NCBI GenBank assembly: GCA_038087875.1
Contig: CM075989.1
Location: 806,001-870,000, forward strand
Direction: 5' to 3'
Length of the DNA: 64,000 nucleotides
Source of the DNA: Malacoraja senta
Lineage: Eukaryota
Part shown: positions 12,601-64,000 of the stretch, piece by piece
How positions within the stretch are numbered: the first letter of the stretch is position 1
How the letters are laid out: each line of letters begins with the position of its first letter
Notes under the pieces: generated by a model
Database searches by the model: none
The model's input: the letters and a program-made list of their open reading frames with translations, nothing else
Told to the model about the DNA's origin: nothing
Position numbers and translations under genes: made by a program

Positions 12601-12765
12601 TAGTAGTAAGATTAAACGAGAACTTACCAGTTTGTAGTTTGATCTTTATTTTATGAAGAGTTACGTTGAGGGATTACGTGAAGAACACGCCAGCGCGCAT
12701 GCGTGTCAATCTTCAAAGCACTGGTGTGAGATCACAGATAATAGTTGATGAACTAAACATAGTAA

Positions 12766-13108
12766 TAATAATAATAATAATAATGGATGGGATTTATATA
12801 GTGCCTTTCTAATACTCAAGGCGCTTTACATTGCATTATTCATTCACTCCTCAGTCACACTCGGTGGTGGTGAGCTACTTCTGTAGCCACAGCTGCCCTG
12901 GGGCAGACTGACGGAAGCGTGGCTGCTAATCTGCGCCTACGGCCCCTCCGACCACCACCAATCACTCCCACACATTCACATGCAGGCAAAGGTGGGTGAA
13001 GTGTCTTTCCCAAGGACACAACGACAGTATGCACTCCAAGCGGGATTCGAACCGGCTACCTTCCGGTTGCCAGCCGAACACTTAGCCCATTGCGCCATCT
13101 GTCGTCCC
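12766..13108 (-). mobile_element. tRNA-derived CORE-like SINE with L2-type tail, inserted in the DIRS-A 3' region
   Basis: A/B boxes (TGGCGCAATGG, GGTTCGAATCC); CORE-like GTGTCCTTGGGAAAGACACTTCAC; tail GTAAAGCGCCTTGAG..GAAAGGCACTATATAAAT..(ATT)n; TSD about ATAGTAA. Confidence 0.85.
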
Positions 13109-13460
13109 ATAGTAAGATTAGAGAAGACTAGAATACCAGTTGATCTTTATGATAGAGGGTTGGGAGCGGAGGGCACGTAATCCCTCAACGTAACTCCTCA
13201 TAAAATAAAGATCAAACTTCAAACTGGTAAGTTCTCGTTTAATCTTACTATTTTACTTCGGAGTCACGCGAGGGACTACGTGAAGATTTCAAAGCTCTGT
13301 GATTTCATGCCGTAGAAACGAGTCCACGTGTCACACACTGTGTTAATTGACCAAGGAGGAGTGAAAATACAATGCATTCAGACATGACATCGTTTTAAAG
13401 CATGCTGATGCTTTTATTTACAAAAAATAAATAATAATGACCCCTAACACTCGGGGTAAA

Positions 13461-14425
13461 TTATAAGACAGATTTTAGAATAGAATCCGCAAACACCCAT
13501 GGCCTGGTAATCGGTTTGTCATAAAATAACTGAAAAGTTCTTTCACTAGACCATCCTGCCGCTGCAAGGATGTGGTCCATAGGAACTTCCAACCCTTTCG
13601 CTGCCGATGTCGATGCAGCCCTAGTGGAATGAGATTTAAAAACATCAGTGTTCATACCTGCCCAAGCCAACACCTGTCTTAGCCACCTTGAGATGGTTTG
13701 TACTGACACCCTTCTGTGAGGTTTCTTATGACTGATAAATAATGCCAATTCAGTGCCTCTGAGGGGTTGTGTGACCTTGATATATTGTAGCAAATGGGTG
13801 ACTACACATAAACGAAGGTCCATGAGATATGCTCCGAATTCCAATCTGAGACCTGACACCCCTGGTCTGCTCTGTTTGATTAATTCATACACATAGAAAA
13901 TTATTTTATTAGCAGATGTTATCATTGTGTCCAGTTGCAACTTTTGTAGTGACTGGACCCTTTGCGCTGAAACTAGCGCCATAAGCATAACTACTTTATA
14001 AGTTAGCTTGACCAATGACAGGGATGTTGCTGGGGCCCACCCTCGAAGCAGCGTCAGTACAATGCCTATATCCCAAATCTTGGAGTAACGAGGTCTGGGA
14101 GGTTTGGTATTAAAAATACCTTTCATGAGTTTTGCCACCAGTGGGTGAGACCCGACAGCGTGGTGTCCCAACCCTAGCCATAAATAGCACAATTAATGGC
14201 ACTGTAACCCAATCCTTCATCAAAATAAAGACTAGACAAAAACTCTAACACATCTGTCACACATGCTGTGTTATACATGACATTAGACTGTAAGCAGAAC
14301 TTCTCCCATTTCCTAATATAGGAGATATATTGTTTCTTGGTAGAATCCCTGCAAGATGCTGTGATCATGTTCAAGGTTCGATCCGTCAGTCCAAGCCCAA
14401 GATAAGGTCTCTTCAGACTCTGCAA
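13461..14425 (-). pseudogene. DIRS-A tyrosine recombinase (frameshifted: ORFs 14174-14425 and 13461-14192)
   Basis: SAQRVQSL, HSTRAASTS and AAGWSS..F..FY catalytic motifs. Confidence 0.85.
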
Positions 14426-14841
14426 ATTAATAAATGTATCCGGTCATGGCAAGGGTGACTTTCCCCTGTTACTGGATGAACCAGGAAATCAGTGCGTTTA
14501 GAAACGGTCATACAGGGTTCTGATATCGTACCATGACTGAGTAGGCCAGTCAGGTACTACCAAGATACAGTGTCCTGTTGGATCTTTTGTAAGACCCGAC
14601 TGATGAGGCAGAAGGGAGGAAATGCATAGAAAAATAACTCTCCTCAGTGGAGCGAGAACGCATCCATCGCCACTGCTCCCATGCAACATACATTGGCAAT
14701 TGGTGATTAAGCCTGGATGCGAATAGATGGATATCCGGCGTTCCATACCGAGCGATAATGTCGGCGAAAACTTTGCGGTCCAACATCCATTCGATGTTAT
14801 CTTTAGATTTTTGTGACCTGGTGTCCGCCACTATATTAAGC

Positions 14842-16089
14842 TTACCTTGGAAGGTAGGTAGCTGACATCCAAATGTTTCTTTTAATGCACCAGTGCCAAA
14901 TAAGGTTAGCCAAATAATCACAGGATACCGACTTAATTCCACACATGTGATTAATATATGCCACCGCAGTGGTGTTGTCAACATGAAGTTGAACGTGTAA
15001 ATGGTGCATTTCTGTACTGTAAGCCTTTAGCCCATAAAATGCACCCAACAACTCTAAATAATTAATACCATGTGACTTGAATAATGATGATTCATGCACA
15101 TCCCATCTGCCACCACAACTAGATATGGTATTAGTAGCACCCCAACCTTGGGTGCTAGAATCGGTTTGTAAAATAACCGAAGGACTGCTGATTATAATGG
15201 TATTGGAACCATGCCGAATGTTGAGTATCCACCATTGCAATTCAGAAATAGCATTGGCTGGTAACCGCATAGGTCGGTCAAAATGACCAGCATGATTTTT
15301 GAGTGCTTGCACCCTTGCACGTTGTAAATTTTGATAATGCAAGGGTCCAAATTGTGCGGTTGGAAATGCGGCCACTAATTTGCCAATTACCCTGGCTACT
15401 TGTCTAATAGATGGCTGATTAACAACAACAAGGTTGTAGCAGGCCTCTACTAATTCCAATCTCTTGCCCGAGGGCAGAGTCACAGACATGTGAACAGAAT
15501 TAATAGTAAACCCCAAATAATCAATCACCGTGGATGGTGTTAACTTAGGTTTATCTGGATGGTTGAGAAACCCCAATATCTCAAACAAGTGTTTAGTGGC
15601 TGAAACAGCTAATTTAGCTAATTCCAGAGATTTCCCAATGATTAAAATATCATCGAGATAAGCCATGACAATATATTTTTGAGCTCTGAGAAGCGCAACT
15701 GCCGGTTTAATAATTTTTGTAAATAATCTGGGGGCTGAAGTTAACCCATTAGGCAATTCTTTAAACTGCCACAGTTGCCCCATCCAGTTAAATTTCAAAT
15801 ACCCTCGGTGATCCCTATGAATGGGTACCGAATAGTATGCATCTTTGAGGTCGATGCATGCCATAAAGCATCCTTTGGAAATCAAATGTTTGGCAGTAAC
15901 AAAAGTTTCCATGTAAAAATGTTTATACTGCACAAAAGCATTTAGCTCAGAGAAATCAAGGATGATGCGGCATCCACCATCTTTCTTTTTCCTTGTAAAG
16001 ATATTAGAAACAAATTCGTGAGGGTAATGCCGTGACCTCTCAACTACACCTTTTGAATGTAACTTCAAAATTTCTGCATGCACAACCAA
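14842..16089 (-). CDS. DIRS-A reverse transcriptase/RNase H (415-aa open segment)
   Basis: DLKDAYY, LPNGLTSAPRLF, AYLDD, QTDSS..GWGA, INYLEL and DNTTAV motifs. Confidence 0.85.
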   Translation of the reverse strand: MVVHAEILKLHSKGVVERSRHYPHEFVSNIFTRKKKDGGCRIILDFSELNAFVQYKHFYMETFVTAKHLISKGCFMACIDLKDAYYSVPIHRDHRGYLKFNWMGQLWQFKELPNGLTSAPRLFTKIIKPAVALLRAQKYIVMAYLDDILIIGKSLELAKLAVSATKHLFEILGFLNHPDKPKLTPSTVIDYLGFTINSVHMSVTLPSGKRLELVEACYNLVVVNQPSIRQVARVIGKLVAAFPTAQFGPLHYQNLQRARVQALKNHAGHFDRPMRLPANAISELQWWILNIRHGSNTIIISSPSVILQTDSSTQGWGATNTISSCGGRWDVHESSLFKSHGINYLELLGAFYGLKAYSTEMHHLHVQLHVDNTTAVAYINHMCGIKSVSCDYLANLIWHWCIKRNIWMSATYLPR

Positions 16090-16289
16090 ACGTTCCTACT
16101 GAGAAAGCACAAACATCCGGTTAGGCGCATGCTGCGTGGATGGTAACGAATTATCAAGGAACTCAATTTTATACCCTTGTATACTGTGCAGTATAAATGA
16201 GTCAGAGGTTATAGAACTTTCACCAACTTGGAAATAATCTACACACCCCATGCTCCGAAAGGAACCAGACCCACCTAGTGGGTTAGTGA

Positions 16290-17534
16290 TTACTTCTTCC
16301 GCCCCCGAGTCCTGGGGGGTAGAGGTGCTGGAATGTGACAATGGCACATCTTCCAAGAAGGTCGCTCTGGGCCTTGGCCTAAAAAAGACCTATGTCCAGG
16401 ATATGCGGCCTTCGAGCTTTCACCAGCCTCAGGATATTGTTTTCTGCTGGTGGATGTATAGGGATGCGGCAGCCGAAATTGATAGGTCTTGCTGGTTGAC
16501 GGCAGCTTCATCAGGCCGACCGCCTTTGCCTCTTCATCCAGGTCTTTGACCTGCTTCGGTAGATTATCCCTGAACAACAAATTTGGCGGATGTATATTGC
16601 TTGCTTTACATTCTGTAACCCTGCAAACTTAGGGTTTAGAGCTGGTCGGATGACACTTTTCCTAAAACAGTTTATCTCAAAATGAGCATTGCACATAAGT
16701 GCTAGCGCATCTTGCTGCTCATCCAACAAAGGTCCTCCATCGACAGACCTGGCAAATGCCGTTATGCCCGAAGCCACTAATCTGAGGATTCTTTGGATTT
16801 TGATTTCTTGGGCCCTGATGCCCCCCCCCCCCCCCAATGTATCCCCAGATAGAATTATTTACTGCTGGGACATTTAGCGATGCACAATTTGCAGGTGCCA
16901 TGTATTTGGGGGCTGTTTCGGTCATCGCCTGCTCCTGCAGCTGGTGAGATGTAAGGTTATTAATACTCTCAGCCAGTTGTTCCTGCAACGGTTCCCCGGT
17001 TTGTGAGGGGACTGCGAATTTGGCAACCATGACAGGTACAGTTCGAGCTTTATGCACCCCAAACATACTTGCAGTGTCTTCAGCCATTCCCCCGAATTCG
17101 GAGTCAGCCCAGTCCTGGCTCCGTATACTCCCCTCCGAGGAGAGAGAGACATTGTGCAGCCATGTACGAGGCGCTGCCGTGGGCTTAGGGGACCCACGCA
17201 GACTTTGCTCCGACTGCTGGAGCATGTTATGTTGGAGCATTTTCTCCACTACACGCTCCATTCGAGCTAAACGCCCCAGGGCACTTTCTGTCGAAGGAGG
17301 TGAATCTTCCCAGCCTGACTCATCCGAGTCCACAGGCCGGTCCGTTTTTCGATTGGCTTTACCCTCTTTTCAGGGAACCACTGCCAAAATTGTAGGTCCC
17401 AAGTCGGAGGTCTCTGACGGCATTGTCAGAGCCTCAGGTGGAGAATTCGACCGCCTCAGACTGCCCGCATTTTCGCGGTCCTACGCAGCCTGTTTTGCCG
17501 CGGTCCGTTTTGACTTAGACCTTAATTTTTCCAT
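16290..17534 (-). pseudogene. DIRS-A gag-like ORF (frameshifted)
   Basis: ATG at 17534; segments 16719-17333, 16511-16837 and 16290-16580 contain P.NC..L.VP.VN and IRPALNPKF, shared with the other two DIRS copies. Confidence 0.7.
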
Positions 17535-17786
17535 TTCCTGGAAATCCAATGTCCTGTAAACGAATTTGCAGGACAAACGACCTCAGAATGTGAAACTTAC
17601 CTGGAGCGTCCTTTTAAACTTACCACTGTAGGAGTTGTGCGCCTACCAACTGGTTGCTGTGCCATGCGTTAGACGATATGACGCGCATGCGTGCTGGCGG
17701 GTTCTTCACGTAGTCACTCACGTGACTCCGAAGTAAAATCTTCTGTATCCACTGTTCTAGGTGTGGACTCATATATTCTGGTAAGG

Positions 17787-42494: not shown

Positions 42495-45400
42495 TATGTG
42501 CTGGGCTCAGGCTACAGGACAGATTGCACTCATGACTTTTTCCAGGATAAGTCGGGGCCCAACACGTTGGTAGCTTGCTCAGTTCCAGTCTTAATAAGTA
42601 AACGAAAAAGGCAAAACAAGACGCACTCAACTCATTCTGCTAATTTATCGAATTTAGCACCCATTCCTCATCAGCCACAGCCAGCAGATAATGATTTTAA
42701 CACACTAAACCTAACTTTATTAAATGTCAGGTCTTTGGCAGGAAAAACATTTGTAATCAATGATTTTATTATCAGGCACGATCTTGATTGTTTGTTCTTA
42801 ACTGAAACCTGGTTAGATCAAAACAACAGTGCTGCTGTTCTTATTGAATCAACTCCTCCCAACTTCAGTTTTATAAGTGAGGCCAGAGTGCATCAGAAAG
42901 GAGGAGGAGTGGCTGTTCTGTTTAATGATTCCCTCCAATGCAAGCAGATATCTTATGGAAACTTTGCCTCCTTTGAATATGTGGCTGTTAAGTTGAACTC
43001 TTCTTCCCGAGTTATGTTCCTAAATGTCTACAGGCCACCTAAATACTGTGCAGCCTTTTTTGACGAATTTTCTGAACTACTGTCTATAATCTGTATTGAC
43101 TTTGACTGTGTAGTTATTGTTGGTGATTTTAACATTCATGTTGACAAACTCCATGACAAAGGGACTAAAGAACTGTATTGTGTCATTGATAACTATGGAC
43201 TGAATCAGCATGTGACGGAGCCCACACACAACAAAGGTCACACTCTGGACTTAGTCATGTCCAAGGGTGTTAGCATTTCTAAGGTTGTCGTGATTGATGC
43301 TGCCCTCTCTGATCATTCCTGTGTTTTCTTTGAGAGTGCTATCTCTATGCAGACTAATGTTCAAAGAAAATTAATCACAAAACGGTACATAACAGAAAAC
43401 ACCTGTGGAACATTTATTCAGGCTTTCTCCTCCACGCCCACTCTCCCCTGGGTCTCAGTAAATGAGCTTGTTGATAATTTCAATGTGAAAATTACAAATA
43501 TTATTGATGCCATTGCACCCACTAAGGTGAAAGTGGTCCCTGGCAAAAAGAAGTCTCCATGGAGAAACGCCACATTGGTAAAAATTGAAAAAAGAGAGTG
43601 TCGGAAAGCTGAACGTAGGTGGCGGAAAACAAATCTCCAGGTTCACTTTTACATCTATAAAGAAAGACTTCGCATCTACAACTTGGAACTGAGAAATGCA
43701 AGGCAATCCTTCTTCTCTGACATCATTGCCAAAAACAATAATAATGCACGGGCCTTGTTTACTACTGTCGACAGGCTAACAAACCCTCCTGTGTCAGTAG
43801 CCCCTGAATTGCTTTCCACAAGGGCCTGTAATGAATTTGCCTCCTTCTTCACCGACAAAATTCAGAAAATTAGGCAAGCAGTCAGTGCCTCCACATCAGG
43901 TGCAGGACATGTGTTGTCCATGTGTCCATTTATAATCAATTCAAATACCATGACACAATTTTATGTTATTAACCATAAAACCTTGGAGGACATTATACAA
44001 CATTTGAAATCCTCCTCCTGCTGCCTCGATATTCTACCAACAGGCCTTTTCAAAGGTGTATCAAACTGCATGACCTCAGACCTTCTACAGATTGTAAACA
44101 CGTCCCTTCTCTCAGGTGTCTTCCCACAGGCCCTGAAAACTGCTGTTATCAAGCCTCTCTTAAAAAAGAAGAACTTAGACACTTCACTACTGAACAATTA
44201 CAGACCAATATCAAACCTCCCATTTCTCAGTAAAATCATTGAAAAAGCTGTTTTTAAGCAGCTGAACAATTTCATGTTAATGAATAGCTGTTTTGATGTC
44301 TTCCAGTCAGGATTTAGACCACATCACAGCACCGAGACGGCTCTTGTTAAGGTCTTCAATGACATTCACTTAAACACAGACAATGGCAAAATTTCAGTCT
44401 TAGTATTACTAGATCTCAGTGCTGCATTCGACACAGTCGATCACAACATATTACTAGACCGTCTGGAAAACTGGGTGGGACTTTCGGGCACAGCATTAAA
44501 ATGGTTTGAATCCTACTTGAAGGACAGGGACTACTTTGTGTCTATAGGTAATTACACATCTGAGTGTGCAAAAATTACATGTGGAGTTCCCCAGGGCTCC
44601 ATTCTGGGGCATCTTCTGTTTAACATCTACATGCTTCCACTGGCTCAGATCATGAAAAACATCAAAATATGTTACCATAGTTACGCAGACGACACACAAA
44701 TGTACATAACAATATCACCAGGGGGCTATAGTCCAATACAAGCACTGAGTAGATGCATTGAGCAAATCAACGATTGGATGAACCAGAATTTTCTCCAATT
44801 AAACAAAGAAAAAACTGAAATAATTGTTTTTGGAGCCAAGGAAGAACGATTAAAAGTTAGCACCCAGCTTCAAATGATAATGCTAAAAACAACAAACCAA
44901 GCCAGAAACTTAGGAGTAGTCATGGACTCAGACCTGAACTTCAACAGCCACATAAATACAGTCACAAAGTCAGCCTACTATCACCTAAAGAATATATCAA
45001 GGATTAAAGGACTTATGTCTCAGCAGGATTTGGAAAAACTTGTCCATGCATTTATCTTCAGCAGGCTCGACTACTGTAACAGTGTCTTTACAGGTCTCCG
45101 TAAAAAGTCGATCAGCCAGCTGCAGTTAATTCAGAACGCTGCTGCTCGAGTCCTCACTAAGACCAAAAAAGTAGATCACATTACTCCAGTTCTGAGGTCT
45201 TTACACTGGCTTCCTGTCTGTCAAAGAATTGATTTTAAAATACTACTGTTGGTATACAAAGCACTGAATGGTTTAGGGCCAAAATACATTTCTGATCTTC
45301 TGCTTAGCTACGAACCACCCAGACCTCTCAGATCATCTGGGACAGGTCTGCTCTGTGTCCCCAGAGTCAGAACTAAACATGGAGAGGCAGCATTTAGTTT

Positions 45401-45766
45401 TTATGCACCACATATCTGGAACAAACTCCCAGAAAACTGCAGGTCTGCTGCAACTCTCAGCTCTTTTAAATCTAGACTGAAGACTTTTCTGTTTGCCGCT
45501 GCCTTTCAGTAAACAATACAATTTATTGATTACCTATACTGCACTGTAACTTCTATTCCTGGTTTTATTCTATTTTAAATATTTTATTTGATTGCTTTTA
45601 ATTTTGTAATTATTTTATCTGAATAATCTAATAATCATTTTATATCTAAATGTCATTTTATATGTGTTTCTTTCAAATGCTTTAAATGTTTTATGTAAAG
45701 CACTTTGAATTACCTTGTGGTTGAAAGGTGCTATACAAATAAACTTGCTTTGCCTTGCCTTGCCTT
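41290..45766 (+). mobile_element. Near-full-length L2-clade LINE with SGNH-esterase ORF1 and intact ORF2
   Basis: ORF1 IVGDS and HIGSN; ORF2 endonuclease plus RT; 3' GTAAAGCACTTTG..AAAGGTGCTATACAAATAAA + (TTGCC)n. The 5' boundary is uncertain. Confidence 0.92.
42498..45512 (+). CDS. L2 ORF2: APE endonuclease and reverse transcriptase, 1004 aa uninterrupted
   Basis: [48 protein letters not shown]. Confidence 0.93.
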
Positions 45767-48950: not shown

Positions 48951-50762
48951 CGGCGTGGATGATGGGCCGAAGTGCCAGTTTCCACGCTGTATCTCTAAAC
49001 TAAACTAAATGTGTCATCTAAAGAACGCGGGGCTATGTGATAGATAGAATGGATGTCAGATCTCGGGAAATGTTCTCCAGTCTTTAACATTTGAAACCTG
49101 GGAGGGAAAAGCACTGAAATCTAAAAACTAAAACGTATCCACTTTTACAATTGCACCAGATGAAACATCCTATCACTGGGCGTGGCATCTGTTCCATCAA
49201 AGAATGAAAATTGCAGAGAATTTAGTAGAGTAGCCCAGTCCCTCACACAAACCAGCAACCCTCTCCCAACACATCGACTCCATCTGCCCTTTAACGCTGC
49301 CACGGGTAAACAGCCAACATGGTCAAGCACTACATATACCCCAGTCATTCCCTCTTCTCATGTCTCCCAATGGACAGAAGATACAAAAGCTCAAAAGCAT
49401 GTAGCACCAAATTTAAGAACAGCTTCTTTCCTGCTATAATTAATTTTAACTTCGGAGTCACGTGAGTGACTATGTGAAGAACCCCGCCAGTACGCCTGCG
49501 CGTCATTACGTCAGACGCATTGGCGCAAACGGACGTGAGGAGCTCTCTAGTGTAAATGAAGTTGTGAACTACAAGGTAAGTAAAAAAAAAATTGTAATTT
49601 CCATGTCCGTTGGCTATGGGTCTGTGGGGATTTTTTCAACAGGCACCATGGAAAAAACGGGCAAGGGGAGGAGGCGAGCGGCACAGCCGGTAGAGAGCCG
49701 CCTCTAACCCCAGTACAGTCGCCAGCGGAGAGCGTAGCGACTGTGGATTTTGGGGCTGAAATGAATGCAGTCAGCACCAGTCGGGTGCAATGCGAAGCCG
49801 CAAAGCTGACAGAGAGCCGCGGGAATGCGGTTGGTAAAGGACTGCCTCATACCCCTATAACAGTCGCCGGCTGGGAGCGGGGCGACTGTGGACTTGTGTG
49901 TTAAGAAAAAGAACGGAGCCAGCGTCAGTTGGGCGCTAGGCAACATACAAGTCAGGTCCATGGAGCAAGAGTCAGTTTGGGATTCACCTCCAAGGCTGGA
50001 TACCACTTTTTGAGTGGATATTCCAAATGGAGAACCTGTACACAGGTTGCTCCAACAAGACATACTCCAGGAGGAGTGATGTCAGAGCCAGGCTCCAGAA
50101 GCCAGGTCAGCAGCACCTAGTAAAGGGCTGCTTGATAGCACCCTCATTGATGAGGCGCGTGCACAGGGTTAGCAGAGTTTCCAAAACAAGTGAAGACGGC
50201 AGCTGCCAGATGGGCTATTCCTGGCAGTACGATTTGCTGCTCTGTGAGAGTTCTGACCCTGAGTCTGACGGTGAGGCCGATACAAGCGAAGACGGCAGCT
50301 GCCAGATGTTTACTCCTGGCAGTACGATTCGCTGCCCCGTCAGAGTCAGGAGAGTCACTGGGAAAGAAAGTGGCCTCTGTGATCAACTATTGTGTCTTCC
50401 ATCAGCTCTAGTAGCTTACGATGGATGAAAATGCCAAAAAAGCACGATATCCCAATGTAAAATGACTTGGTTCCTACACAGAGTCTTTTACTGATGGTTT
50501 ATTAAATCACTAACACACACCATGCAATAGCTGTCCGTGGTCATCACTGGAGCTAGAGAGAGGGCTGGAGGTGGGAACCTTACAATTATAGGAGAGACAA
50601 TGGGGAGTGGTTAGTAGTGGTGAGGTCACTAAGTTAAAGGAACATGCACTGATCTACATCCCTCCTCTTGGAAACAAAAACATGGCAATACACAGAGCGA
50701 CCACGGCTCATACGCTAGGATTACAAACCGCGCTGGGAACAGTTAATCGTGTCATAACACAG

Positions 50763-53700
50763 CTAAGCGAGCTCCCCGCAACGGACAGGCGGCTTGACCA
50801 ACCGGCCATAGCGGGTGCGCAACCCGCATTCCCCCTCAACCGCAGGAGCAGAAGGGACAGAGTCAGGGAAAGCGGTGGGAGAGCCGGGCGGGGAACGAAC
50901 CGGAGACGGAAGAGAACAGCGAGGCGAAACGGGCACGCTGGCAGGCAAGGCAGGGGAAAGAGGCTTGTGAGCGCGGGGCATAGAGAGCTGGGAGGGCAGT
51001 TTCCGCGACATGCGAGGAGTGACAGGGGCTGGCGGAGCCTCGGGCAGAATGGAAGGGATAGGTGGCTGAAACGGGTCCGCGGGAGGCGGAGGAGGCTCGT
51101 TGACGAGCAGGAGGTGCTGGCGTGACCGACGGTAGATAGCGCCCTCATAGTCGACGAGGTATGACCGAGGAGAGCCAGCATTACCAACCACTACGGCCAG
51201 CCTGTAGTGCCCGGAGGGGGACTGCATCCGAACCACCTGGCCCGGGAACAGGCAAGGAAGCGGCCGGGCCGACTTGTCAAAGGAGCGCTTCTGGATGGCT
51301 TTCTTCTCGATGATGCGCTCTGTGACAGCAGCAGAGTTCTGGACTGAGGGTTTGAGGGACTGTTGCGAGACAGGGAGAGGTGGTCTAGTGGTGCGGGACA
51401 TGAGGCGTTGGGCAGGTGAACCGAGCACGGGGTCGCGGGAAATGTTGCGGAGGTTGAGGAGGGCAAGGTAGAAGTCGGAATGTGAAAGGCGGCAGTGTTC
51501 CAGCAGCTCCTTGGCACTGCGGACGGCGCGTTCCGCAAGGCCGTTGCTCTGCGGATACTCAGGGCTGCTGGTTATGTGACGAAAGTTCCAACGGGCAGCG
51601 AAGGCACGGAACTCGGCGCTGGAGAACTGGCTGCCGTTGTCCGATTGGAGGGTCACCGGGGGTCCATGGGTGCAAAAGTGTTGGCGAAGCTTCCCGATGA
51701 CGGCGGCAGAGGTGATGGAAGGCAGCTGATCCACCTCAAACCAACTGGAGTATGAGTCCACCAGGACCAGGAAATGCTTGCCACGCCATTCGAAAAGGTC
51801 CGTGGCAATATACATCCACGGTAGCTCGGGGGCCGGCTGCTGCAGGAGGGGCTGGCGCTGCTGATGAGGCAGGAGACTGTTACAGGCAGCGCAAACGGAG
51901 ACCCTGTCACGGATGTCCTGAGCCATACCTGGCCAGTAGAATTGGCTCTGGGCCTGGGACAAAGTGGCCTCCACCCCGGGTGGCCATCGTGTGCAGTTTG
52001 AAAATAGTGATCCCGCAGAGCGGCCGGCACCACGACCTTGTGACCCTTCACCACCACGCCGTAATGTAGCACTAGTTCATCACGAACCAGGAAGTAGGGC
52101 ACGGCACCAGCCGGCAGGGAAGAGCGTCGGTCAGGCCAACCATGGCGGATAACGTCCGCAAGTTCTTGCAGGGCAGGATCATCAGCAGTGTGTTTGACCA
52201 GGGACTGCATCTGCTGGGATGGAACAATGTTAACATCAGTACCATCAGGTCAGAGGATTCGTACGGGTGGCGGGCAACTGAAGGGAGCGGCGCATGGGAC
52301 AATGTGTCGGCCACAAACATATCTTTGCCCTTGCGGTAGCACAATCCGGAACGTGAAACGCTGGAGCTGCAGCATCATCCGCTGCAACCGGGAAGAGGCG
52401 ACATGGATAGGCTTGTTCAGAATAGTGACCAGTGGCTGGGTGGTCAGTCTCAATGGTGAAGGTGTTGCCCAGAATGTAATCCCTAAACTTGGAGCAGGCG
52501 AACACCACGGCAAGTAGCTCCTTCTCGATCTGTCATAACGTTGCTCGGCAGGGGTCATGGTGCGAGAAGCGTAGGAGACAGTAGCTGCAGGCCGTCATAA
52601 AGCTGCAGACATGCGGCACGAGACCGAACTTAGAGGCATCACAAGTGAGGACAATTGGTCTGTGCAGATCGAAGAACTTGAGAGTCCGGTGTGTGTGTGA
52701 GCCTGGACTTCAGAGCCACGAACGCCGACTGGTGATGCGGGAGCCAGACCCATGCGGAGTCTTCTTGATCAGCTCCCTCAGGGGAGCACTCAGTTCGCTG
52801 AGGTCAGGTACGAACTTCCCCAGGTAATTGACCAGGCCCAGGAAGCGCTGCAGGCCGGGAACGTCAGTAGGAGCGGGCATCTCGGTGACTGCTGATGTTT
52901 TCTGGGGGTCAGGCTTTAAACCCCCTGCCGTGAAAACGTGACCAACGTAAGTGACTTCCGGGACCCGGAACCGACACTTCTTGGGGTTGAGCTTGAGATT
53001 GATTTTACGAGCCCTGTCCAGGACTTTGCGGAGGTGCAGGTCGTGCTCAGCGACGTCCCTCCCGTACACCAGGATGTCATCCACGATGATAGCGCACGGC
53101 AACCCAGCGAACAGCTGTTCCATGGTGCGCTGGAAAACCTCACTAGCCGAGTTGATCCCAAACGGCATACGGAGGAAACGGAACCTGCCGAAAGGTGTGA
53201 TGAAGGTGGTCAGGAATGAGGAACGTTCATCTAAAGGGATCTGCCAGAATGAGCTTTTGGCGTCTAAGACAGAGAAGACAGTGGCAGGACCGACCTGTGC
53301 AGCGACGTCCTCCACCGTCCGCATGGGGTAGTGCGGGCGCTTGATGGCCAGGTTCAGGTCCTTTGGATTAATGCAGATCCGGATCTCGCTCTTATCCTTC
53401 TTGGCAGCGACAACCATGTTTGAGACCCACCTGGTGGCAGCGCTCACCTCCTTGAGGATGCCCATGGTCACCATATCACGCAGAGTAGATTCCACGCGGC
53501 CCTTCATAGCGAAGGAGACGCGGTGGGCCGGTCGAACCACCGGGTCGACACTCGGGTCGACAACGATTTTATAGTCACAGGGCAATTTGCTCAAAATGTC
53601 ATCAAAACGGTCGGGGTATTCGCCCAGGGGGTCCATGGGGGCCTGCACCAGGTCAATTCCGCGGTGGAAAGAAACCAAACCAAGGTCCTGGCACGCACAG

Positions 53701-54869
53701 GCGCCCAGCAGGGTGACGTTGTCAGAATCCAGGAGGTGGAAGGTGAGGGGCCGAGAGGTCTCAAGGACTGTGCAGATAAGCGTGGCCTTCCCCACTGGAA
53801 CTAGAACTCCTCCCCCATAGACATGAAGGCGGGTGTCATCGGGAGTAACTATCTCCCCAGATCTTATCCGCTTGAAAAGGCTGATAGACATAACATTTGA
53901 AAAGGCACCAGTATCGACCTTGGCAGAGAATGAATGACCATTAACAGTAACATGCACAGAGGGATCTGTTATCGTAGCAGGTGCACCCAAAAGCAAAAAC
54001 ACCGTTGAATCACCATGGGAGGAGCTCCTATCAAAGTCCGACTGGTACTGATAACCAAGCGCGCTATCAGGGTCTGCAAGGTTGTTTAAATTCCTCCTTG
54101 GAGCAGGGAGCGGCTTATCACGGGACCGACAAGCCGCCGAAAAGTGGTTCAGTTTGCCACAGGAATTACAAGTCTTACCCTGCGCGGGGCAAACGTTGAA
54201 TTGGTGGAAAGAAAAATTACAATTGGGGCAACGGCGTGGGGTGACCTTAGCGGGCGTTGCGGCGGGGTTTCGTCGTGGCGGACCAGCGTTCCACCGGCGG
54301 CCAGCTGCACCGGTAAAGTTAATGTCCTGGGACACCGGTTAAGACACGGAGCTAACAGCAGAGGCCATACGAGCGGAATACATAGCCTCCCTTAGTGTCA
54401 AATCAGGTTTCATAAGGAGCTCGTCACGCAGCTTAGCGTTCAGGAGACCATTGACGAGGACATCCCTGATCAATTGGTCCGTGGAGATTGTTTCAAGGCG
54501 ACAGCGCCGAGCCATATGACGCAAAGAGGCAATAAAAGCGTCAATATGCTCGCCGGGATTCTGCCGCCTCTGGAAGAATTTAAAGCGTTCAATAATGTTA
54601 TTGGTAGGGATATCACAGAGGGCAGTGAATTTATCAATGAGACATACCGGGTCCCGACGGTCTTCTCCGGGGGCGAAGTCGAATGAAGCATAGTGATCCA
54701 TGGCCTCCGGGCCAGCGAGGTTGAGCAGCAGGTGAGCCTGCACAGCAGGGGTGGCATTAGGATGAGCGATGGCTGTGTAATGTTCAAAGTCGCGCTGGAA
54801 CACAGTCCAGCGGTGGACAATGTCCGTGTCAAAGACCAATATGTCGGGTCGACGACAGGAATTGGACAT
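50763..54869 (-). pseudogene. Gypsy gag-pol (in-frame TAA at 54339-54341; frameshifts in RNase H and integrase N-terminus)
   Basis: ORFs 54339-54869 and 52710-54335 share a frame; further ORFs 52250-52558, 51653-52210 and 50763-51974 (SDNGSQF, SNGLAERAV). Confidence 0.88.
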
Positions 54870-55097
54870 AATGAAAACGGGGGGGGAGACGTGAACAACT
54901 GGGAGAAAGCAAAGAATAAAAAGAAAAAACGATAAACAGGAGACGCGGGTCTACCACTTCGACACCATGTAAAATGACTTGGTTCCTACACAGAGTCTTT
55001 TACTGATGGTTTATTAAATCACTAACACACACCATGCAATAGCTGTCCGTGGTCATCACTGGAGCTAGAGAGAGGGCTGGAGGTGGGAACCTTACAA

Positions 55098-58000
55098 TTT
55101 TACTTCGGAGCCACGTGAGTGACTACGTGAAGACCCCGTCCAGCACGCATGCGCGACATTAGCGTTCACGCAGTGCAACAGCGACGACCGGGAGTACAGG
55201 CGCTCCCGCTACACGTCGGTGGAAAACTAAACAGCGGACCATCAGGTAAGTCTTACACTGAGGTCGTAATCCGCAAGCTGTGCTCTGCTCTCTATTCCAG
55301 AGGAACTGGGAACAGGAGCAGCACGGCAAAGGAGAAAACCGCCCCCCGTTCGACTCCAACAGAACGGGAGTGTTCCATCAGTGGGGGGCGAGAGGCGGCA
55401 CCTGGACCGCATATGCGGCGGTCCACCCTCATCGAGACCGAGCCGAGCCCAGTCCCGCTAGCGCAGCCTGATGAGCGGCAGCGGGCTGGAGGAAAAGTTT
55501 TAAAAAAACAAAAAAAAAACGGCCGGTTATGTCTGACTCCGATGAGGAGGCTCTCCGCCTTAGAGTGGCAGAGCTAGCCGCCTGAGCCGAATGGAAAGGC
55601 TCATGGAGCAACTGCTCCAGCGAGACTTGCTTCAGGAGCTAGAGCAGTCTCGCCAGAGGGATCAGGCACTCCCACAGCAGTGCTCTATAAATGCACTGGC
55701 CATCGCTTTCCCCTCAAAGCAGGGCAGCGTTGGCGACCAGGGCTGGGCTGGTCAGGAAGAGGGGTCATTGGCTGAAGATGTCGGGAGTACGCTTGGGGTA
55801 CAGGATCAGGAAGAGCTGCTGGGTGTGGAGATTCGCTACGTGGTTTCACCACGAGCAGGGCGGCCATTGGAGCCAAAATTGGCGGCCAGCATCAACCACC
55901 TGTCCCTCAAACCCCTACAAGACAGGTACTTAATGAGGCACTAGAGCTGGAAAACTGCAGTTCGCTCAATGTACCGGCTGTTAACAGCCAAATCTGGGGG
56001 GGGGGGACAGAGTATCCGGAACCAGGAGCTAAAATCCTCAAGCTCCTGACGACAGGGATAACAGCCTATGCTCGTTCCGTGGATGGGGTGGATATGACCA
56101 CAAACCAGCAAGACACTCTGGCTCTGCTGTGCTACACCCAATATGAGATAAATAACCTCCGCAAGGAGAGAATAAGACCTGCCCTCAATCCCAGGTTTGC
56201 AGGACTGTGTAAAACACCGGCCTCAGAGCCGCAGATCCTGTTATTTGGAAGGACAAGTGAAAGACATGGAGGAGGAGTCCAAAGCATTTGGCCTCATGAG
56301 GGCAGGCCCCGGAACGAGCAGACCCACACAAAAAACCAGACGGCAGTACCCCACCGCGTCCACCAGTCAAGGTCAAATTTATGTCACTGGTGAAAGCTCG
56401 GGGTCCGCATACTATCCCCGAAAGCCTTTTTAGGCCAGGGCCCAGAGCGGACCCCATGGAAAATGCGCCACCCCCAATCAGCAGTACATCAGCAGTACAT
56501 CCAGCAGTATAACGACGGATGAACAAACGGAAGAAAGGAACACTACCATAACTATGGAGGTAGGTGGGTCTGGTTCCTACCAGCATGTAAATGGGGAACT
56601 GTACTAACAGTAGGTGTCTCACGAATGATAGTTATATACTTAACAGTATTCGGGGATACAAAATAGAGTTCATTCACGAAAACATGCCACCAGTACAGCA
56701 CGTACCCCAAAGGGTCTTTACCCTCTCAGTCAAAGAGAAACTATAGGCTCAAGAAGAACTGGTGAGGTTACTTACAAAGGGTGTCATTGAGAAATCCAAA
56801 CATGATCCTTTGGAATTTGTCTCAAATATATTTACCAAAAGTAAAAAAGATGGTGGATGTCGCATCATCATTGACTTAACCTCACTAAATACCTTTGTTA
56901 AGTATGTACATTTCAAAATGGAAACATTTGTAACTGCTAAACAACTGATTTCCAAAGGATACTTTATGGCAAGCATTGATTTAAAAGATGCCTACTATTC
57001 AGTACCCATTCACAAGGGTCATCGCAGATACCTGAAAATTTACCTGGATGGGGCAACTATGGCAGTATAAAGTATTGCCTAATGGGTTGACATCAGCCTT
57101 AGACATATTGTCATGGCGTATCTTGATGATATCCTAATAGTTGGCAAAACCATGGAATTGGCTAAATCAGCTGTATTAGCTACCAAATAATTGTTTGAAA
57201 CCCTGGGTTTGTCATACATCCAGATAAATCTAAGATGACGCCATCCACAACAATGGACTATCTGGGAATCAATTAACTCAATCCACATGTCTGTAACGTT
57301 GCCAAAAGGTAAAGCAGCAGAATTGGCACAGATGTGCAACAATTTAATGGTAAGCAATCGACCAACCATCCGACAAGTGGCAAGAGTAATTGGCAAAATG
57401 GTAGCAGCATTTTCAGCTACACAATTTGGACTCCTGCACTATCAGCACCTACAAAGGGCAAAAGTACAGGCGTTGAAACGACATGCAGGTCACTTTGACA
57501 GATCCATGAAACTACCCATTGAAGCAATATCAGAGTTACAATGGTGGATATAACACATTTGGCATAGTTCCAGCCCTATCATCATCAATAACCCAACGTT
57601 AACTATACAAACAGATGCCAGTGCTCAAGGCTGGGGAGCAACTAATACCATATCCAGCACAGGTGGTAGATGGACTAACCTAGACTCGTCTTTACTACAA
57701 ACACTGGGCATAAATTATTTGGAAATGTTGGGTGCGTTTTATGGTTTTAAAGCATATTCTAGGAATATGCACAACTTGCATGTTCATTTACAAATTGATA
57801 ATATCACGGTGGTGGCCTATATTAACCATATGACCGGAATAAAATCGATATCATGTGACAATTGGGTCAACACAATCTGGTAATGGTGGGTCGATAGACA
57901 TATTTGGCTATCAGCAACTTACCTACCAGGTAAGCTAAATACAGTGCCAGGTCACGCAAATTCAATGATAAACACCGAATGGATGTTAAATCCTAGAGCT

Positions 58001-59849
58001 TTTGCTAAAATTACAAACCAATATGGCACACCAGATATCGATCTCTTTGCATCCAGACTAAATCACCACGTACCAATGTATGTCCCTTGGGAACCACACC
58101 CTGAGGCAGCAGCGATAGATGCATTCGCTCTGAACTGGGGGACCGATTTCTTCTATGCTTTTTCCCCTTCTGCCTTAATCTGTAGGGTACTACGCAAAAT
58201 ACAGATGGACTCTGCTTCAGGTATTTTGATAGTACCAACTGGCCTACACAGCCATGGTTCCCAGTGGTCCTCGACATGGTCATCGAAACTCCTATGACTT
58301 TTCCCAGTAGCCCAGACCTATTGACGCACCCTGTATCAGGCATAAGTCATCCATGCCATGCCAAAATTAACCTACTGGGTTGCAGATTATCAAAAGACCA
58401 CTGCTGGGACTGGGATTGTCTGACAGGACCATCAACATGATGACACCGTATGTCCACCAGGAAACAATACCTATCGAGCATCAGGAAGTGGGAAAGATAC
58501 TGCTCGACTACTGGGACAACGTACTCATCTGCAACCATAACCAATGTACTGGAGTTCTGGGGGGCCTTCACCATAATGAAGGATTGAGCTACAGCGCCAT
58601 CAATACTGCCAGACGTGCGCTGTCAGCCTACTTAAAACAGGTGCCAGGACAACAGGCCATAGGGTCTCACCCGCTGGTGATCAAACTCATGAGGAGTATC
58701 GTCAACTCCAACCCTCTTAGACCTAGGTATACACAAATCTGGGATGTCAGTGTGGTCCTGACATACCTAAGGGGATGGTCCCCAGCCAGGTCTCTCACCC
58801 TGGAAAAGCTAACCCTGAAAATGGTCATGCTGATGCTACTAGTCTCAGCACAAAGAGTCCAGTCCCTCCACTTACTGCGACTGGACAACATGGTTATAAC
58901 ACCAGACCGGGTCTCATTCACCATTCAGGAGCTGCTAAAGCAGAGCAAGCAAGGAACTTGAGTCCTAGTTATGGATTTCCGGGCATACCCACCTGACCTA
59001 CGGTTGTGTGTCATGACTTACTTATTCACTTACAACAACACAACAAGAGATTCTCGAGGGAGAAAGGGAAAAAAAAAAAAAAAAAAAAAAAAAAAAAGCC
59101 TTATGGGTCAGCCACAAGAAACATCATGGTTGGGTGTCGAGCCAAACCATCTCGAGATGGCTCAAGCAGGTACTGGGAGCTGCTGGAGTAGATACTGATG
59201 TATATACATCTCACTCCACCAGGGCAGCATCCACATCGGCGGCTAAAAGAATGAACATGGAGAAAACGTTCCAAACGTTCTACCACAAGCCGCTAGCAGA
59301 ACCTGTGTTATTTGCAGAAAGAGTTTTAAAATCTGCAAAAATATATAATTTAAGCCCGGGGGAGCATTTTATCTTTTGTTATTGTTTAATAGATACCATT
59401 ATTGTTTACAAACAGATTATGGTTGATTACGATAACATACTTCCTCCCTTGAATGACTTCGGCAGCGAGTGAAGTATGAACTGTTACACGGTTTGAAATC
59501 ACAGAGCTTTGAAGTCTTCACGAAGTCACTCACGTGACTCCGAAGTAAAATAGTAAGATTAAACGAGAACTTACCAGTTTGAAGTTTGATCTGTATTTTA
59601 TGAGGAGTTACGATGAGGGATTACGTGCCCTCCGCTCCCACCCTCAAATATATAGATCAACAGGTATCTTAGTTCTCCTTTTCTTTACTATGTTTATTTC
59701 AATTATTGTGTTTCCTGTGATTCCACACCGCTGCTTTGAAGAATGTCGCGCATGCGTGCTGGACGGGGTCTTCACGTAATCCCTCATCGTAACTCCTCAT
59801 AAAATACAGATCAAACTTCAAACTGGTAAGTTCTCGTTTAATCTTACTA
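55098..59849 (+). mobile_element. DIRS retrotransposon C (complete termini, decayed ORFs) inside the Gypsy LTR
   Basis: 5' TTTTACTTCGG; perfect ITR GTGAAGACCCCGTCCAGCACGCATGCGCGACATT; ICR ~59515-59627; RT DLKDAYY and YLDD; YR HSTRAAS. Confidence 0.95.
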
Positions 59850-62689
59850 TTATAGGAGAGACAATGAGGAGTGGTTAGTAGTGGTGAGGTCACTAAGTTA
59901 AAGGAACATGCACTGATCTACACCCAAGGAACTGCGTATTGCTGAAAGTACTAGCAGTGAACCAAGATATAAAGGGTCAGATGGGCGAAGGCATGTAAGC
60001 CTAAGGAAAGTAAACTGCAGAGAATATTGAAGCTGCTGGGTTGATGAACAACTGCAATTTGCAAAACAAGGGATGGAGATGCATCAAGTGGCACTAAGGT
60101 TGCTATGTAGCGCCCAATTCGAGATAAATTGTTTCAGGAAGTATGCCATTCGGTCCACCATCAACCCAAAGTTGCAGCAACTCTGTAAAGGCCAGCAATG
60201 TGCAGTCATTCAACTTATTCTTCAGAGAAAAAACCTCATGAAACGTGGGAAAGAGTTGGATAATGAGGCAAAAACAGCAAAGTTGATCACAACATCAATG
60301 GTCATCAAGTCTGCAAAGAGGACGTATCCTTTCAGACATCATACAAAATCCTGGACCTACATCAGGATCAAATCGACCATTGAAGCAGGTGCACGTTTGA
60401 TGTCCTGCAGCAGGAAAACGAAAAAGCGTGGGTTTTGCCTGCCAGGAGCCAGGGACCACAGGTCACTCAGATGACAAAGGAGGTAGGTGGAACTGGTTCT
60501 TATGGGAACATATTAAGGCAAAAACAGCCAAATATTGGAAGCAAATTACTTCAGTTATTATTCTGAGTATTATAGAAAGGTTTCGAATTGATTCGATTCA
60601 AATACTGATTTGCCATCCAGCATGTTCCAAGCAGAACACTCCAATTTCACATTAAAATAATTGATGGAGGTTCAAGCTGAATTGAAAACTTGTTTATAAA
60701 CAAGTAATTGAAAGGTCGGTTTATCAAAACCACCAAATTGTGTTTAAAATTTCTCAACCTAAAAAGGTGAGGAGTATTTTAGATCTGACAAGTCTTTAAA
60801 ATTTTGTGAAGTATGGACACTTCAAAATGGAGACTTTGAACCTGCCAAACAATTTATTTCAAAAAAGATGTTTTATGGCACTTATAGATCTGAAAGATGT
60901 ATATTACTTAGTGTTTGTTCATTTGTAAGATAAAAATATTTAACAATTATCTGAAGGAACAATTATGGCAATTCAAAGTTCTGTCTAAACGGGTTAACTT
61001 CAGTTCCTAGAATTTCACTAAATTGGTAAAACCAATTTTGGGGCTAATTAGAGTCCAAGGACAGATGTGGATTGCTTTATTGGATGATGTCCTAATTAGG
61101 ACGAACAAGAGAATTAGTGAGTTATCTCTCTCAAATTATTCAAACCACTTTTGAAAGTTGGGTTTAAGTCATCCAGAGAGAAATTAAGGTTAACGTTACT
61201 TACAACAATTGATTATTTGATTCCATTGACAGGGTAGTAATTCACCCAGGGTAAAGGGTAAAGCTAATTGATGGTTGTCTTAAGCGGTTGGAAAAGCAAC
61301 AATCTTCAATTAAGACAGGTGGCCAGCTTGTTAGGAGAATTAGTGTTATTTCCAGCAATACAATATGGGCCATTGTACTACCAGCAGCTGCAGACTGCAA
61401 AAAGAAAAAACACTAAGATGCATGGTCGCCATTTTTTGATAGGCCATGCAGTTAAACAACAAATGCTGCTTCTGATTGCAGTAGTGGATTTAACATGTCT
61501 TCAGTAGTTCAAGCAAGATACGGATTGAACAGCCTTCCATGGTCTTAACAGACTGATATCAGTGTACTAGGATTGGTGCCACTGAAAAGGTATCCATCTG
61601 TGGACAGATGGAATATGGAAGAAGTATTATTTTGCAGACATGGAGAATCGACGTTTTACAGCTATTGGAAGGCTTATGGGCTCCAAGCTTGTTGTTAAAT
61701 ACAACTAATCTGCATGTTCAGTTTCAAATTAACAACACTACAGCAATGGCATGTATTAATGGTATGGGTGGAATTTCCATGATAACAAAGAATGGATGTT
61801 TAACCGCAAGATTTTAATGATATAATAGTCAGATTTGGGAAGCCAGATATGACTTGTTTCCATCCAGACTCAATCACCAGTTACAGAGATATGTGTTAGG
61901 GGACTACATCGGGAGACAGTAGCGATTGATGTTTCTCGCTACATTAGGATGGTATGTTTTTATATGCATTTTACATCATCCTGTCTCATAAACCGGTGTC
62001 TGCTTAAAACGAAGCAGTATGCTGCCTCTGGGGTATTCGTGGTACCAGACGGGGCTACGCAGCCATGGTTCCCTTTGATATTGAAATTTATGACACAGTT
62101 TCTGATAAATGTTTCCAAAAGAAGGAAGTTACTGGTGTATTCAATAATTGGAGAGTAACATCCGTCATATGCCTGTATGGATCTGTGAATTTGCAGGTTT
62201 TAAAAAAGAGGATTGTCTGGGCATGCTGTGACCATGCTTACAGCAGTCTGGCGGAAGAGTACTCAAAAGCAGTACATTTGTGAATCTGAGGTTGTGACTC
62301 TGTAAATGCTGCTTTCCCATTATGTAAAGAATGAGGGGAAAAATTTTCTGTGTATAAAAGCATATGGAATGTTGTACGCCACATGTCTCAAATGTCTTGG
62401 ATTTACCTCTATTTAAGGGGTTGAGTTATAGTGCGATTTATTCAGACAGAAGTATATTATTCCTCGTTTTTTATTGATGAGGTTGGAAAGACATCCTGTT
62501 GAGCCTCATTCTTTTATTTCCAGATTAATGAAAGGAATTTTAATTCCAGTCCTTCTAAACCTAGGAGGGAATCTGGAATATAGAGTTGTTTTAAGCTACT
62601 TCATCAATGGAGTCTTGGTACGATTCTGATTTGGCCAAGTTCAGCATGAAGGTAGTTATGCTTATGGCACTTGTAACATTACAAAGTTA

Positions 62690-63293
62690 AAGGCCTGTCT
62701 CACGAATCTGCGGTCATTGGCGGCGAAACGGGAAGAATCTGCCGCCATAGACCGCGCACTCGTGAGAAAGTACAATTCCCGGGCCGTGCGACGATGTTCC
62801 CAACACCGCGCGGTGCTAAAATAAAATCGACAATGTCGAAAACACTATACTCACCGCACAACCTCCACCAGTGATGCACAAGTGCGGCACGGCCGCTCGC
62901 ACGGGCCGCCGCCAGTGTGGGTCGAGCGCCGTGCATCAAACCTCCTCTGCCACAGCCTCCGCCAGTGAGGCACGTGCCGCCGCCAGTGAGGCACGTGTGC
63001 TGCGCGGCCGCAGTCACAGCCACCGCTACAGCGCCGCGATCAGGATGGCCGCCGCCACAGCCGCCGCTGGTGAGTCACGTGCGGCGGGCCGACGTTATCG
63101 CAGTCGGCCCGCCCTTTTTTTACTTACCGCAAGCACGTGGGACCCGCCGTGTTTGAATTAACTCGGCCCCCGCGCAACATCCGTGCGGCGCTCCGGTGGA
63201 TAGGCTCGACGCTCTCGCCGTTGCCGCGCGGTCCTTGCTACCGGCGACGCCGCGCTTCACCGCCGATGACCGCAAACAGGTAAGACAGAGCCT
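62690..63293. mobile_element. GC-rich MITE (PIF/Harbinger-like) inserted in the DIRS-B recombinase region
   Basis: Imperfect TIR AGGCCTGTCTCACGAATCTGCGGTCATTGGCGGCGAA / TTCACCGCCGATGACCGCAAACAGGTAAGACAGAGCCT; TTA on both flanks. Confidence 0.75.
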
Positions 63294-64000
63294 TTACAGA
63301 TACACAGGATGGAAGTACCTCAGGATTATGTTATGTTTTACATGTTATGACCTACTCAAATGAAGTATGATCAGGTGTGATAGGATTCAAGAGTGTGTTA
63401 TTAGCATATTCTATGGATCCATGTCTATGTGTTAAGACATATTTGTTGCAATACATTGAGGCTACAAAGGTCTTATGAAATATGAAAACAAGATTGTTTA
63501 TCATTCACGAAAAACCATACAAGATAGTGTCAGTTTAGACTATTTTAAGATGGTTAAAAACAAGTTTTGGTTGCTGCAGGTGTGAACATTGATGGTTTTA
63601 CATTCCATTCAGTTTAGCAGTAACATTGACGACCAGGGCGAAGGACGTCCCGTCGACCATATTTTCACAGCCGCCGGGTGATGTAATAAGTTGGTGTTTC
63701 AACACTTTTACCATCGGCCTATTGCCAATACGGGGCTGTTTGCAGATACTATATTAAGTTCTGCTTAAATTTCCCTGGGTTAAAGGGGATACTGTTAATT
63801 ACTTTATTCAAATAAATGAATTACTGCATTCGTCATGCAAATGTTATTATTAATGCATTATTGATTATTTCTCATTCCGAGTCAATCAATGCAGTGAGAA
63901 GCCGGGATTTGTATCTGCGGCATGAAATCACAAAGCTTTAAAATCTTCACGTAGTCACTCACGTGACTCCGAAGTAAAATAGTAAGATTAAACGAGAACT

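Follow-up and report, generated by a model that had tools for sequence, protein, structure and literature searches.

The 64-kb stretch of the Malacoraja senta genome analysed here (64,000 nucleotides, referred to below as the window) contains three divergent DIRS elements, A, B and C, and each of them carries, between its left end and its gag-like first reading frame (ORF1), a strong splice donor followed by an acceptor. A retroelement that is copied from spliced RNA loses its intron. Are these genuine splice signals, and if they are, how could elements that multiply through RNA have kept them? Comparison with other copies in the same genome leads us to conclude that the splice architecture of these elements, which belong to the known DIRS superfamily, is real and conserved, and that it is probably functional. 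Judging from the sequences, we consider it rather probable that host splicing makes the DIRS mRNAs from which protein is produced, with unspliced RNA serving as the only template for copying.

All three elements share a 36-nt left end, identified when the 64-kb window was compared with itself, and the 1.94-Gb assembly contains 14,318 exact matches to a 32-nt terminal motif, at up to two per element (Table 1). Element A encodes both a reverse transcriptase (RT) and a tyrosine recombinase (YR) recognised by Pfam, the combination that places it in the DIRS1-like superfamily, and C gave a weaker YR match. As in the DIRS1-like elements described in the available text of PMC3266345, PMC7192593 and a Xenopus preprint (10.1101/2021.08.05.455354), we found inverted terminal repeats, an internal complementary region (ICR), T-rich ends, ORF1 and RT, with a recombinase that overlaps the end of pol; in 23 of 23 long elements, and likewise in C, these repeats were present along with an ICR that shows complementarity to each end. 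Among the recombinase relatives listed (402 + 32), the best named ones came from skate, with 60-67% identity, and PF05869 was annotated for some of them. The 15 DIRS frames scanned contained neither a DDE integrase nor an aspartic protease, matches of this kind being confined to the nested LTR retrotransposon, and the broken DIRS frames scanned gave no match to a methyltransferase domain at the end of pol. All sampled copies are decayed, and their reading frames were pieced together from fragments. No related loci were found in metagenome and viral contigs.

The nesting in the window has three levels, with C inside an LTR of the LTR retrotransposon (which has short LTRs of ~206 bp and TG...CA ends) and this element itself inside B. 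Elsewhere on the plus strand of the window (41568-45512), stop-free frames of 308 and 1005 codons lie in the same frame.

Table 1. Features of the DIRS elements in the window; positions count from its first letter, and a slash marks a predicted splice site.
Feature	Position	Strand	Details
DIRS A	12604..17739	-	RT 16095-14845, recombinase 14192-13464; RVT_1 E 1e-16, Phage_integrase E 3.9e-6 (Pfam)
A leader intron, predicted	17538..17600, 63 nt	-	86 nt from upstream donor 17623
A slippery heptamer T TTT TTA, predicted -1 frameshift into linker/pol frame	16380..16386	-	
A recombinase acceptor (TTAATTTGCAG/)	14420..14430	-	border donor deleted (short deletion) in this copy
DIRS B, 5' part (left end, leader, ORF1 start)	49445..50454	+	terminal motif, self-comparison
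B leader intron, predicted (AAG/GTAAGT ... CAG/)	49576..49642, 67 nt	+	then GCACCATGG
B predicted hairpin, intron sequence pairing with acceptor and ORF1 ATG	49614..49651	+	no two-sided covariation in clade
B ORF1 (gag-like) start codon	49648..49650	+	first ATG at +6 in 30/30 near copies
DIRS B, 3' part, extends past the window	59923..64000	+	border donor GT 60483, recombinase acceptor AG ends 62196
LTR retrotransposon (protease, RT, integrase) within B	50455..59922	-	5-bp target duplication CCCAA
DIRS C, within one LTR of the LTR retrotransposon 50455-59922	55098..59854	+	YR Pfam match E 0.0057
C leader intron, predicted (CAG/GTAAGT ... CAG/)	55246..55300, 55 nt	+	invariant in 30/30 near copies (99% alike)
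C second predicted intron (GAG/GTAGGT ... TTGCAG/), spans pol	56560..58385, 1826 nt	+	
C internal complementary region (ICR)	59515..59627	+	complementary to left 36 nt and right end
C right inverted repeat and right extension	59742..59854	+	terminal GTAAG..CTTAC hairpin 59826-59847

The earlier note had located leader donors and acceptors in A, B and C, and all of these coordinates proved correct when the window was read again. For A it had offered two acceptors, at 17554 or 17538, ahead of an ATG at 17534; these positions hold, with the refinement that the distal AG (17538) is the conserved one, its CAG being present in 30/30 near copies versus 26/30 for the proximal CAG, and the usual intron length being 65-66 nt. 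The proximal acceptor (17554-17577, minus strand) is predicted to lie in a hairpin with a UUCG loop at its tip. Among the 30 best matches per family the donor GT was invariant in A, B and C, the donor 9-mer was intact in 24, 29 and 30 copies, respectively, and the acceptor CAG in 30 (distal site), 28 and 30, the C copies being 99% alike, so that invariance alone says little in that family.

Behind the acceptor, the first ATG stands at +4 to +6 in 26/30 A copies, and in L136 and L137 the ATG behind the acceptor opens a frame of ~380-400 codons. In family C an ATG is found at +14 in 4/30 near copies, and the copy in the window has none just behind the acceptor. A weaker second donor, 18-35 nt upstream of the first, is present in A and in many other families and would give introns of 60-86 nt; no upstream donor matching at least 7/9 positions was found in C (55 nt), L096/L130 (49 nt) or L101/L133 (48 nt).

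A survey of donor and acceptor conservation, as proposed in the earlier note, was run on DIRS families sampled from this genome, and the signals were kept. The sample comprised 94 of the first 100 listed matches to the terminal motif, all on one contig, which yielded 53 ICRs and 41 left ends belonging to 14 leader clusters. A donor matching U1 at 8/9 positions or better within nt 90-175 was present in 39/41 leaders, near-perfect and located at nt 115-160, compared with 1/41 antisense leaders, 78/2050 shuffles (3.8%), 18/1058 windows from the element bodies (1.7%) and 0/53 ICR sides; of the two leaders without it, one is a deletion derivative and the other has a mutated GT. An acceptor (YAG with at least 10/15 pyrimidines, nt 175-225) was present in 34/41 leaders and in 12/13 cluster representatives, the deletion derivative being omitted, versus 14% of shuffles and 18% of 1771 body windows; for both signals the windows and thresholds were set after the sequences had been inspected, and the families are related, so that the counts overstate independence. 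The pyrimidine tracts of B are modest (9-10/15), and in L107/L131/L125 the acceptor is ambiguous.

The leaders had also been described as poorly alignable, which is about right: nine family representatives showed a median leader identity of 48% (range 40-66%), and pol is 59-77% alike between the same nine. A short motif inside the intron is common to A and C. The donors vary within the U1 consensus (GTAAGT or GTGAGT, with CAG, AAG or TAG on the exon side), their spacing and flanks change, and the length of the leader intron ranges from 47 to 96 nt, with clade D at 94-96 nt. Motifs that arose by chance in one ancestor and never had a function could look conserved, as the families share ancestry and six-letter motifs are common; yet signals kept in leaders as divergent as these, against 0-4% in the controls, leave such an explanation with a negligible probability, and across the sequences compared a chance origin of the leader signals is excluded in practice.

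One sampled element, L134, is internally deleted to 1.3 kb and has lost most of its leader intron by imprecise deletion. We considered it as a spliced copy and rejected this, since the loss does not fall at the splice sites and is therefore a deletion. Many abundant subfamilies (C, D) have no ATG behind the acceptor, and in family C (L031-L060) and clade D (L093, L113, L123, L124, L132, L135, L140, L159) this absence is accompanied by common frame breaks. Because of both features, these young or abundant lineages are likely to have spread as non-autonomous elements that still keep the leader signals.

Copies that had lost the intron were searched for in the genome with exact patterns of the predicted spliced leader junction, written for the B, C and D clades; there were 0 matches, versus 2,538 (B), 488 (C) and 687 (D) for the unspliced sequence. 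We rejected the possibility that the leader intron (nt 115-215) is restored after its loss from the right repeat or the ICR, because the inverted repeat spans nt 10-62 only (up to 88) and the ICR nt 1-36 in 23/23 long elements, and neither reaches that far. Under the ICR model, as set out in the available text of PMC7192593, the same limits imply that the RNA begins upstream of the donor. That text also reports an experiment on Dictyostelium DIRS-1, in which new copies had lost a marker intron inserted artificially behind the left repeat and ahead of ORF1, so that loss of an intron on copying is possible in that element. Either the leader intron is unspliced, or spliced RNA is barred from replication, and the zero count of intron-less copies is predicted equally by an absence of splicing.

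A role of GTAAGT in replication rather than in splicing deserves consideration at this point. The same motif, as G/GTAAGT, stands at the 3' end of 20/23 elements, where it folds into a 7-bp hairpin, and a 3' hairpin has been proposed as the RT primer for DIRS-1 (available text of PMC7192593); moreover the ICR reads GAACTTACCAG, and the complement of the motif that it contains could pair with the leader motif in the manner of U1. Such a role leaves unexplained the acceptor, the CAG/AAG on the exon side and the second donor/acceptor pair described below, and the leader and terminal motifs do not co-vary, clade D having GTGAGT donors and an unchanged 3' end. We regard it as quite improbable.

The size of the leader intron bears on whether it can be removed at all. 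Measured from the strong donor, the introns of A, B, C and others are mostly 47-69 nt. According to the accessible parts of the respective sources, the vertebrate intron minimum is likely ~76 nt (PMC9438311) and human donor-to-branchpoint distances of <50 nt fail (PMC11291888), and short human introns are on record (PMC5435141). A vertebrate minimum of ~70-76 nt is reached by clade D and by introns from the upstream donor (70-86 nt), but not by those from the strong donor in A, B, C and others.

The shortness of the introns speaks for a reading in which the leader donor binds U1 and the mini-intron is seldom or never removed, the binding instead affecting transcription, the fate of the RNA in the nucleus or its protection against premature polyadenylation; the 'acceptor' would then be part of a start-codon hairpin, and the second intron may still be spliced. 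Promoter-proximal effects of U1 are familiar, HUSH is reported to silence intronless retroelements (PMC8770142), and the lack of intron-less copies, as well as a donor better conserved than the acceptor (39 versus 34 of 41), fit with it. What it does not explain is why YAG and a pyrimidine tract recur ahead of the ATG in 12/13 clusters, at shifting distances and in unrelated sequence, why the CAG is invariant in 30/30 diverged A copies, and why the intron measures 94-96 nt in clade D and, counted from the upstream donor, 70-86 nt in several families. On balance we think it unlikely, and retain splicing of the leader as the preferred reading.

Predicted folding adds a further layer to the leader. 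In B, D and other families, sequences that are unrelated to one another are predicted to fold the acceptor (and in B also the ATG) onto intron sequence, and acceptor-covering hairpins reached p<=0.05 in 10/21 tests versus 11/72 control acceptors; in C they were not significant. Two-sided covariation was found in 0/13 and 0/23 pairs, the changes inside clades being one-sided. A general hairpin masking the donor was rejected, being present in some families only and absent in B and in the A copy of the window. The 96-nt introns of clade D contain a near-invariant predicted 14-bp hairpin with a purine-rich 5-nt loop (L113:1603-1727 and others), a candidate packaging signal; the region has z values of -3.9 and -4.8.

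An alignment of 23 long elements (21 sampled elements, A and C, two elements with insertions being omitted) was scanned for common sites, and what is new here is a second conserved pair of predicted splice sites, formed by a donor at the ORF1/pol border and an acceptor in front of the recombinase. The border donor, GAG/GTANGT, occurs in 21/23 elements and falls between two codons in the pol frame; variation at its fourth base alters the encoded amino acid, and GTA and GT are mostly kept. The acceptor, TTAATTTGCAG/, lies where the recombinase frame opens, scored above threshold in 22/23 elements and reads YAG in 23/23, and the recombinase frame starts on a codon boundary directly behind it, so that donor and acceptor match in phase (both phase 0). 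The recombinase frame is closed no more than 8 codons upstream in 19/23 elements, the pol stop falls one codon past the acceptor in 15/23, and in L125, L126 and L130 the recombinase frame has no Met in its first 35 codons. Joining the two sites would remove ~1.8 kb and put the recombinase in the place of pol. The pair sits in coding sequence, so that codons contribute to the constraint, and other acceptor-like sites are also common within coding sequence, which means that codon conservation alone can create such sites. Inspection by eye gave no slippery site for a -1 frameshift from pol into the recombinase, and the pol-less junction had 0 genomic copies versus 1,903 unspliced ones.

Gene annotation in other animals offers a comparison for this predicted junction. 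By tblastn, 4 of 152 listed recombinase relatives matched ORF1 and the recombinase, and not pol. The RefSeq entries XP_071502116.1, XP_071483612.1, XP_072032829.1 and XP_072043497.1, which are gene models, have ORF1 joined to the recombinase without pol, and the joints of the sea urchin and brittle star models, E/VLKLPF and E/IVRRSL, fall at the same position as the predicted junction, with the E occupying the column of the Q of the genomic acceptor. In a beetle, a 380-aa ORF1 form and a 710-aa ORF1-recombinase form are annotated, and the skate model XP_055488383.1 instead joins pol to the recombinase. Four sequencing runs, of unstated type and thus no guide to expression, were mapped on C, and none of the 15 strongest of 29 joints matched a predicted junction. 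Runs X1 and X2 resemble deep genomic DNA, and X3 and X4 give thin contigs; contigs of X3 cross both second-intron sites of C unbroken. The single end-to-start joint on C (run X1), of the kind that a circular DNA intermediate would give, has a sequence that is also that of the ICR.

In A-clade elements the end of ORF1 lies 25-29 nt ahead of the border donor (at -29 in 13/26 A rows), and the heptamer T TTT TTA is present in ORF1 phase in 18/27 A-family copies; an FFR linker that matches it is found in both echinoderm models. ORF1 continues in frame across the border into pol in several B and D copies, and in the B subfamily of the window the ORF1 stop lies 11 nt before the border donor (11/24 rows). 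Pol looks reachable without splicing, through the ORF1 frame in some clades and through a -1 slippery site in others.

These observations bear on a suggestion of the earlier note, that the leader donor is also joined to downstream acceptors to express pol or the recombinase, which amounts to one shared first exon spliced to three alternative acceptors (ORF1, pol and recombinase). As a motif, the recombinase acceptor does exist, and in the B and D clades it is followed four codons on by an in-frame ATG, the A-clade TTTTTTAG can be read as an acceptor, and most families have an ATG 2-6 codons before the border donor. However, no pre-pol acceptor among the sites listed is common to all families, the next ATG after the A-clade TTTTTTAG is mostly in the ORF1 frame, and three families have no early Met in the recombinase. 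Because a dedicated, in-phase border donor exists and pol looks reachable without a splice, this suggestion is less well supported than the separate border donor, and we hold it to be very improbable.

The companion suggestion, a spliced mRNA beside an unspliced genomic RNA, fared better and is partly supported, fitting the conserved signals, the ORF1 start behind the acceptor and the zero count of intron-less copies. A bolder reading built on it, which we rate as somewhat less likely than not, is that the DIRS elements of vertebrates and echinoderms use a two-intron switch, in which an undersized, self-folded leader intron would set message versus genome, and a second splice would put the recombinase in the place of pol behind a common Gag N-terminus. 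For the main reading itself, the signals, their conservation, the frames and the absence of intron-less copies are the observations from which the following steps are proposed. An internal promoter near nt 40-60 would make a single pre-mRNA. In several families the ORF1 start codon and the acceptor are predicted to pair with intron sequence; once the leader intron is removed, the start codon would become accessible, so that translation would be efficient from spliced RNA and poor from unspliced RNA. Because the leader intron is at or under the minimal size and folding partly hides its sites, its splicing would be inefficient, and some of the RNA would stay unspliced. A splice between the border donor and the recombinase acceptor would keep the N-terminal part and attach to it the tyrosine recombinase instead of RT, RNase H and methyltransferase. 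This would explain how a recombinase frame that does not open upstream, and that often lacks an early Met, is expressed. No splice would be needed to reach pol, which would either continue the ORF1 frame (B2 and D clades) or follow a -1 frameshift (A clade), and a signal in or across the leader intron would exclude spliced RNAs from packaging or from reverse transcription.

The left ends of the three elements (49445-49520 and 55098-55170 on the plus strand, 17739-17665 on the minus strand) contain CACGTG, GCGCATGCGC-like and TTACGTCA-like boxes. We take these boxes to resemble E-box, NRF1 and CRE sites, pointing to a likely internal promoter.

Several known systems resemble parts of this arrangement. 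Retroviruses and Drosophila copia make a spliced subgenomic mRNA beside the unspliced genome from a leader donor upstream of gag, and retroviruses shift to the -1 frame on U UUU UUA. The DIRS elements described here are alike in the leader donor, incomplete splicing, folded splice sites and the slippery heptamer, all predicted on the DIRS side; unlike retroviruses and copia, they have no protease, integrase or envelope, their leader intron closes before ORF1, and their second splice would exchange pol for the recombinase. Penelope-like elements, according to the available text of PMC8557442, likewise retain a short intron ahead of the ORF, in the 5'-UTR (75 bp in Penelope, 398 bp in Chlamys-3_cRei), and that source calls intron retention through retrotransposition highly unusual and typical of these elements. 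They form another subclass, with a GIY-YIG endonuclease and pseudo-LTRs, of which the present elements, with their recombinase, inverted terminal repeats and ICR, are not members, and the Penelope intron overlaps the terminal repeat and the promoter, whereas the DIRS leader intron lies outside both repeats.

For DIRS1-like elements themselves, the available text of PMC3266345, PMC3783388 and the Xenopus preprint (10.1101/2021.08.05.455354) mentions no natural intron or splicing, in contrast to the predicted introns found here, and natural DIRS splicing is not mentioned in the available text of PMC6681497, PMC4157794, PMC5633606, PMC3950715, PMC9341512, PMC9940879 and PMC12477816. The literature searched, whose scope lay outside the main DIRS reviews, contained no report of natural splicing of a DIRS leader, and the novelty is provisional. 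Goodwin and Poulter are said to have discussed transcripts of fish and frog DIRS, and a prior mention, there or in Repbase or Dfam notes, is possible. Nor did we find in the literature searched an explanation for how the overlapping pol and recombinase frames of DIRS are expressed. The two-intron switch, if true, would explain this, and would make DIRS a second retrotransposon subclass that keeps introns. The exact predicted junctions can be used with any RNA set from a shark, ray, fish or echinoderm. In addition, a kept 5' intron would be a plausible way around silencing directed at intronless retroelements, of the kind reported for HUSH.

Finally, with strong donors and acceptors in thousands of copies, these elements could affect the splicing of host genes at insertion sites. 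The right ends of the elements (59795-59854, plus strand; 12604-12650, minus strand; sampled elements) have an AATAAA-type signal ~20 nt before an invariant G/GTAAGT, which folds onto the terminal CTTAC and likely forms a 3' hairpin of the type proposed to prime reverse transcription. This right-end G/GTAAGT is also a strong donor motif, and could splice read-through transcripts into host exons.
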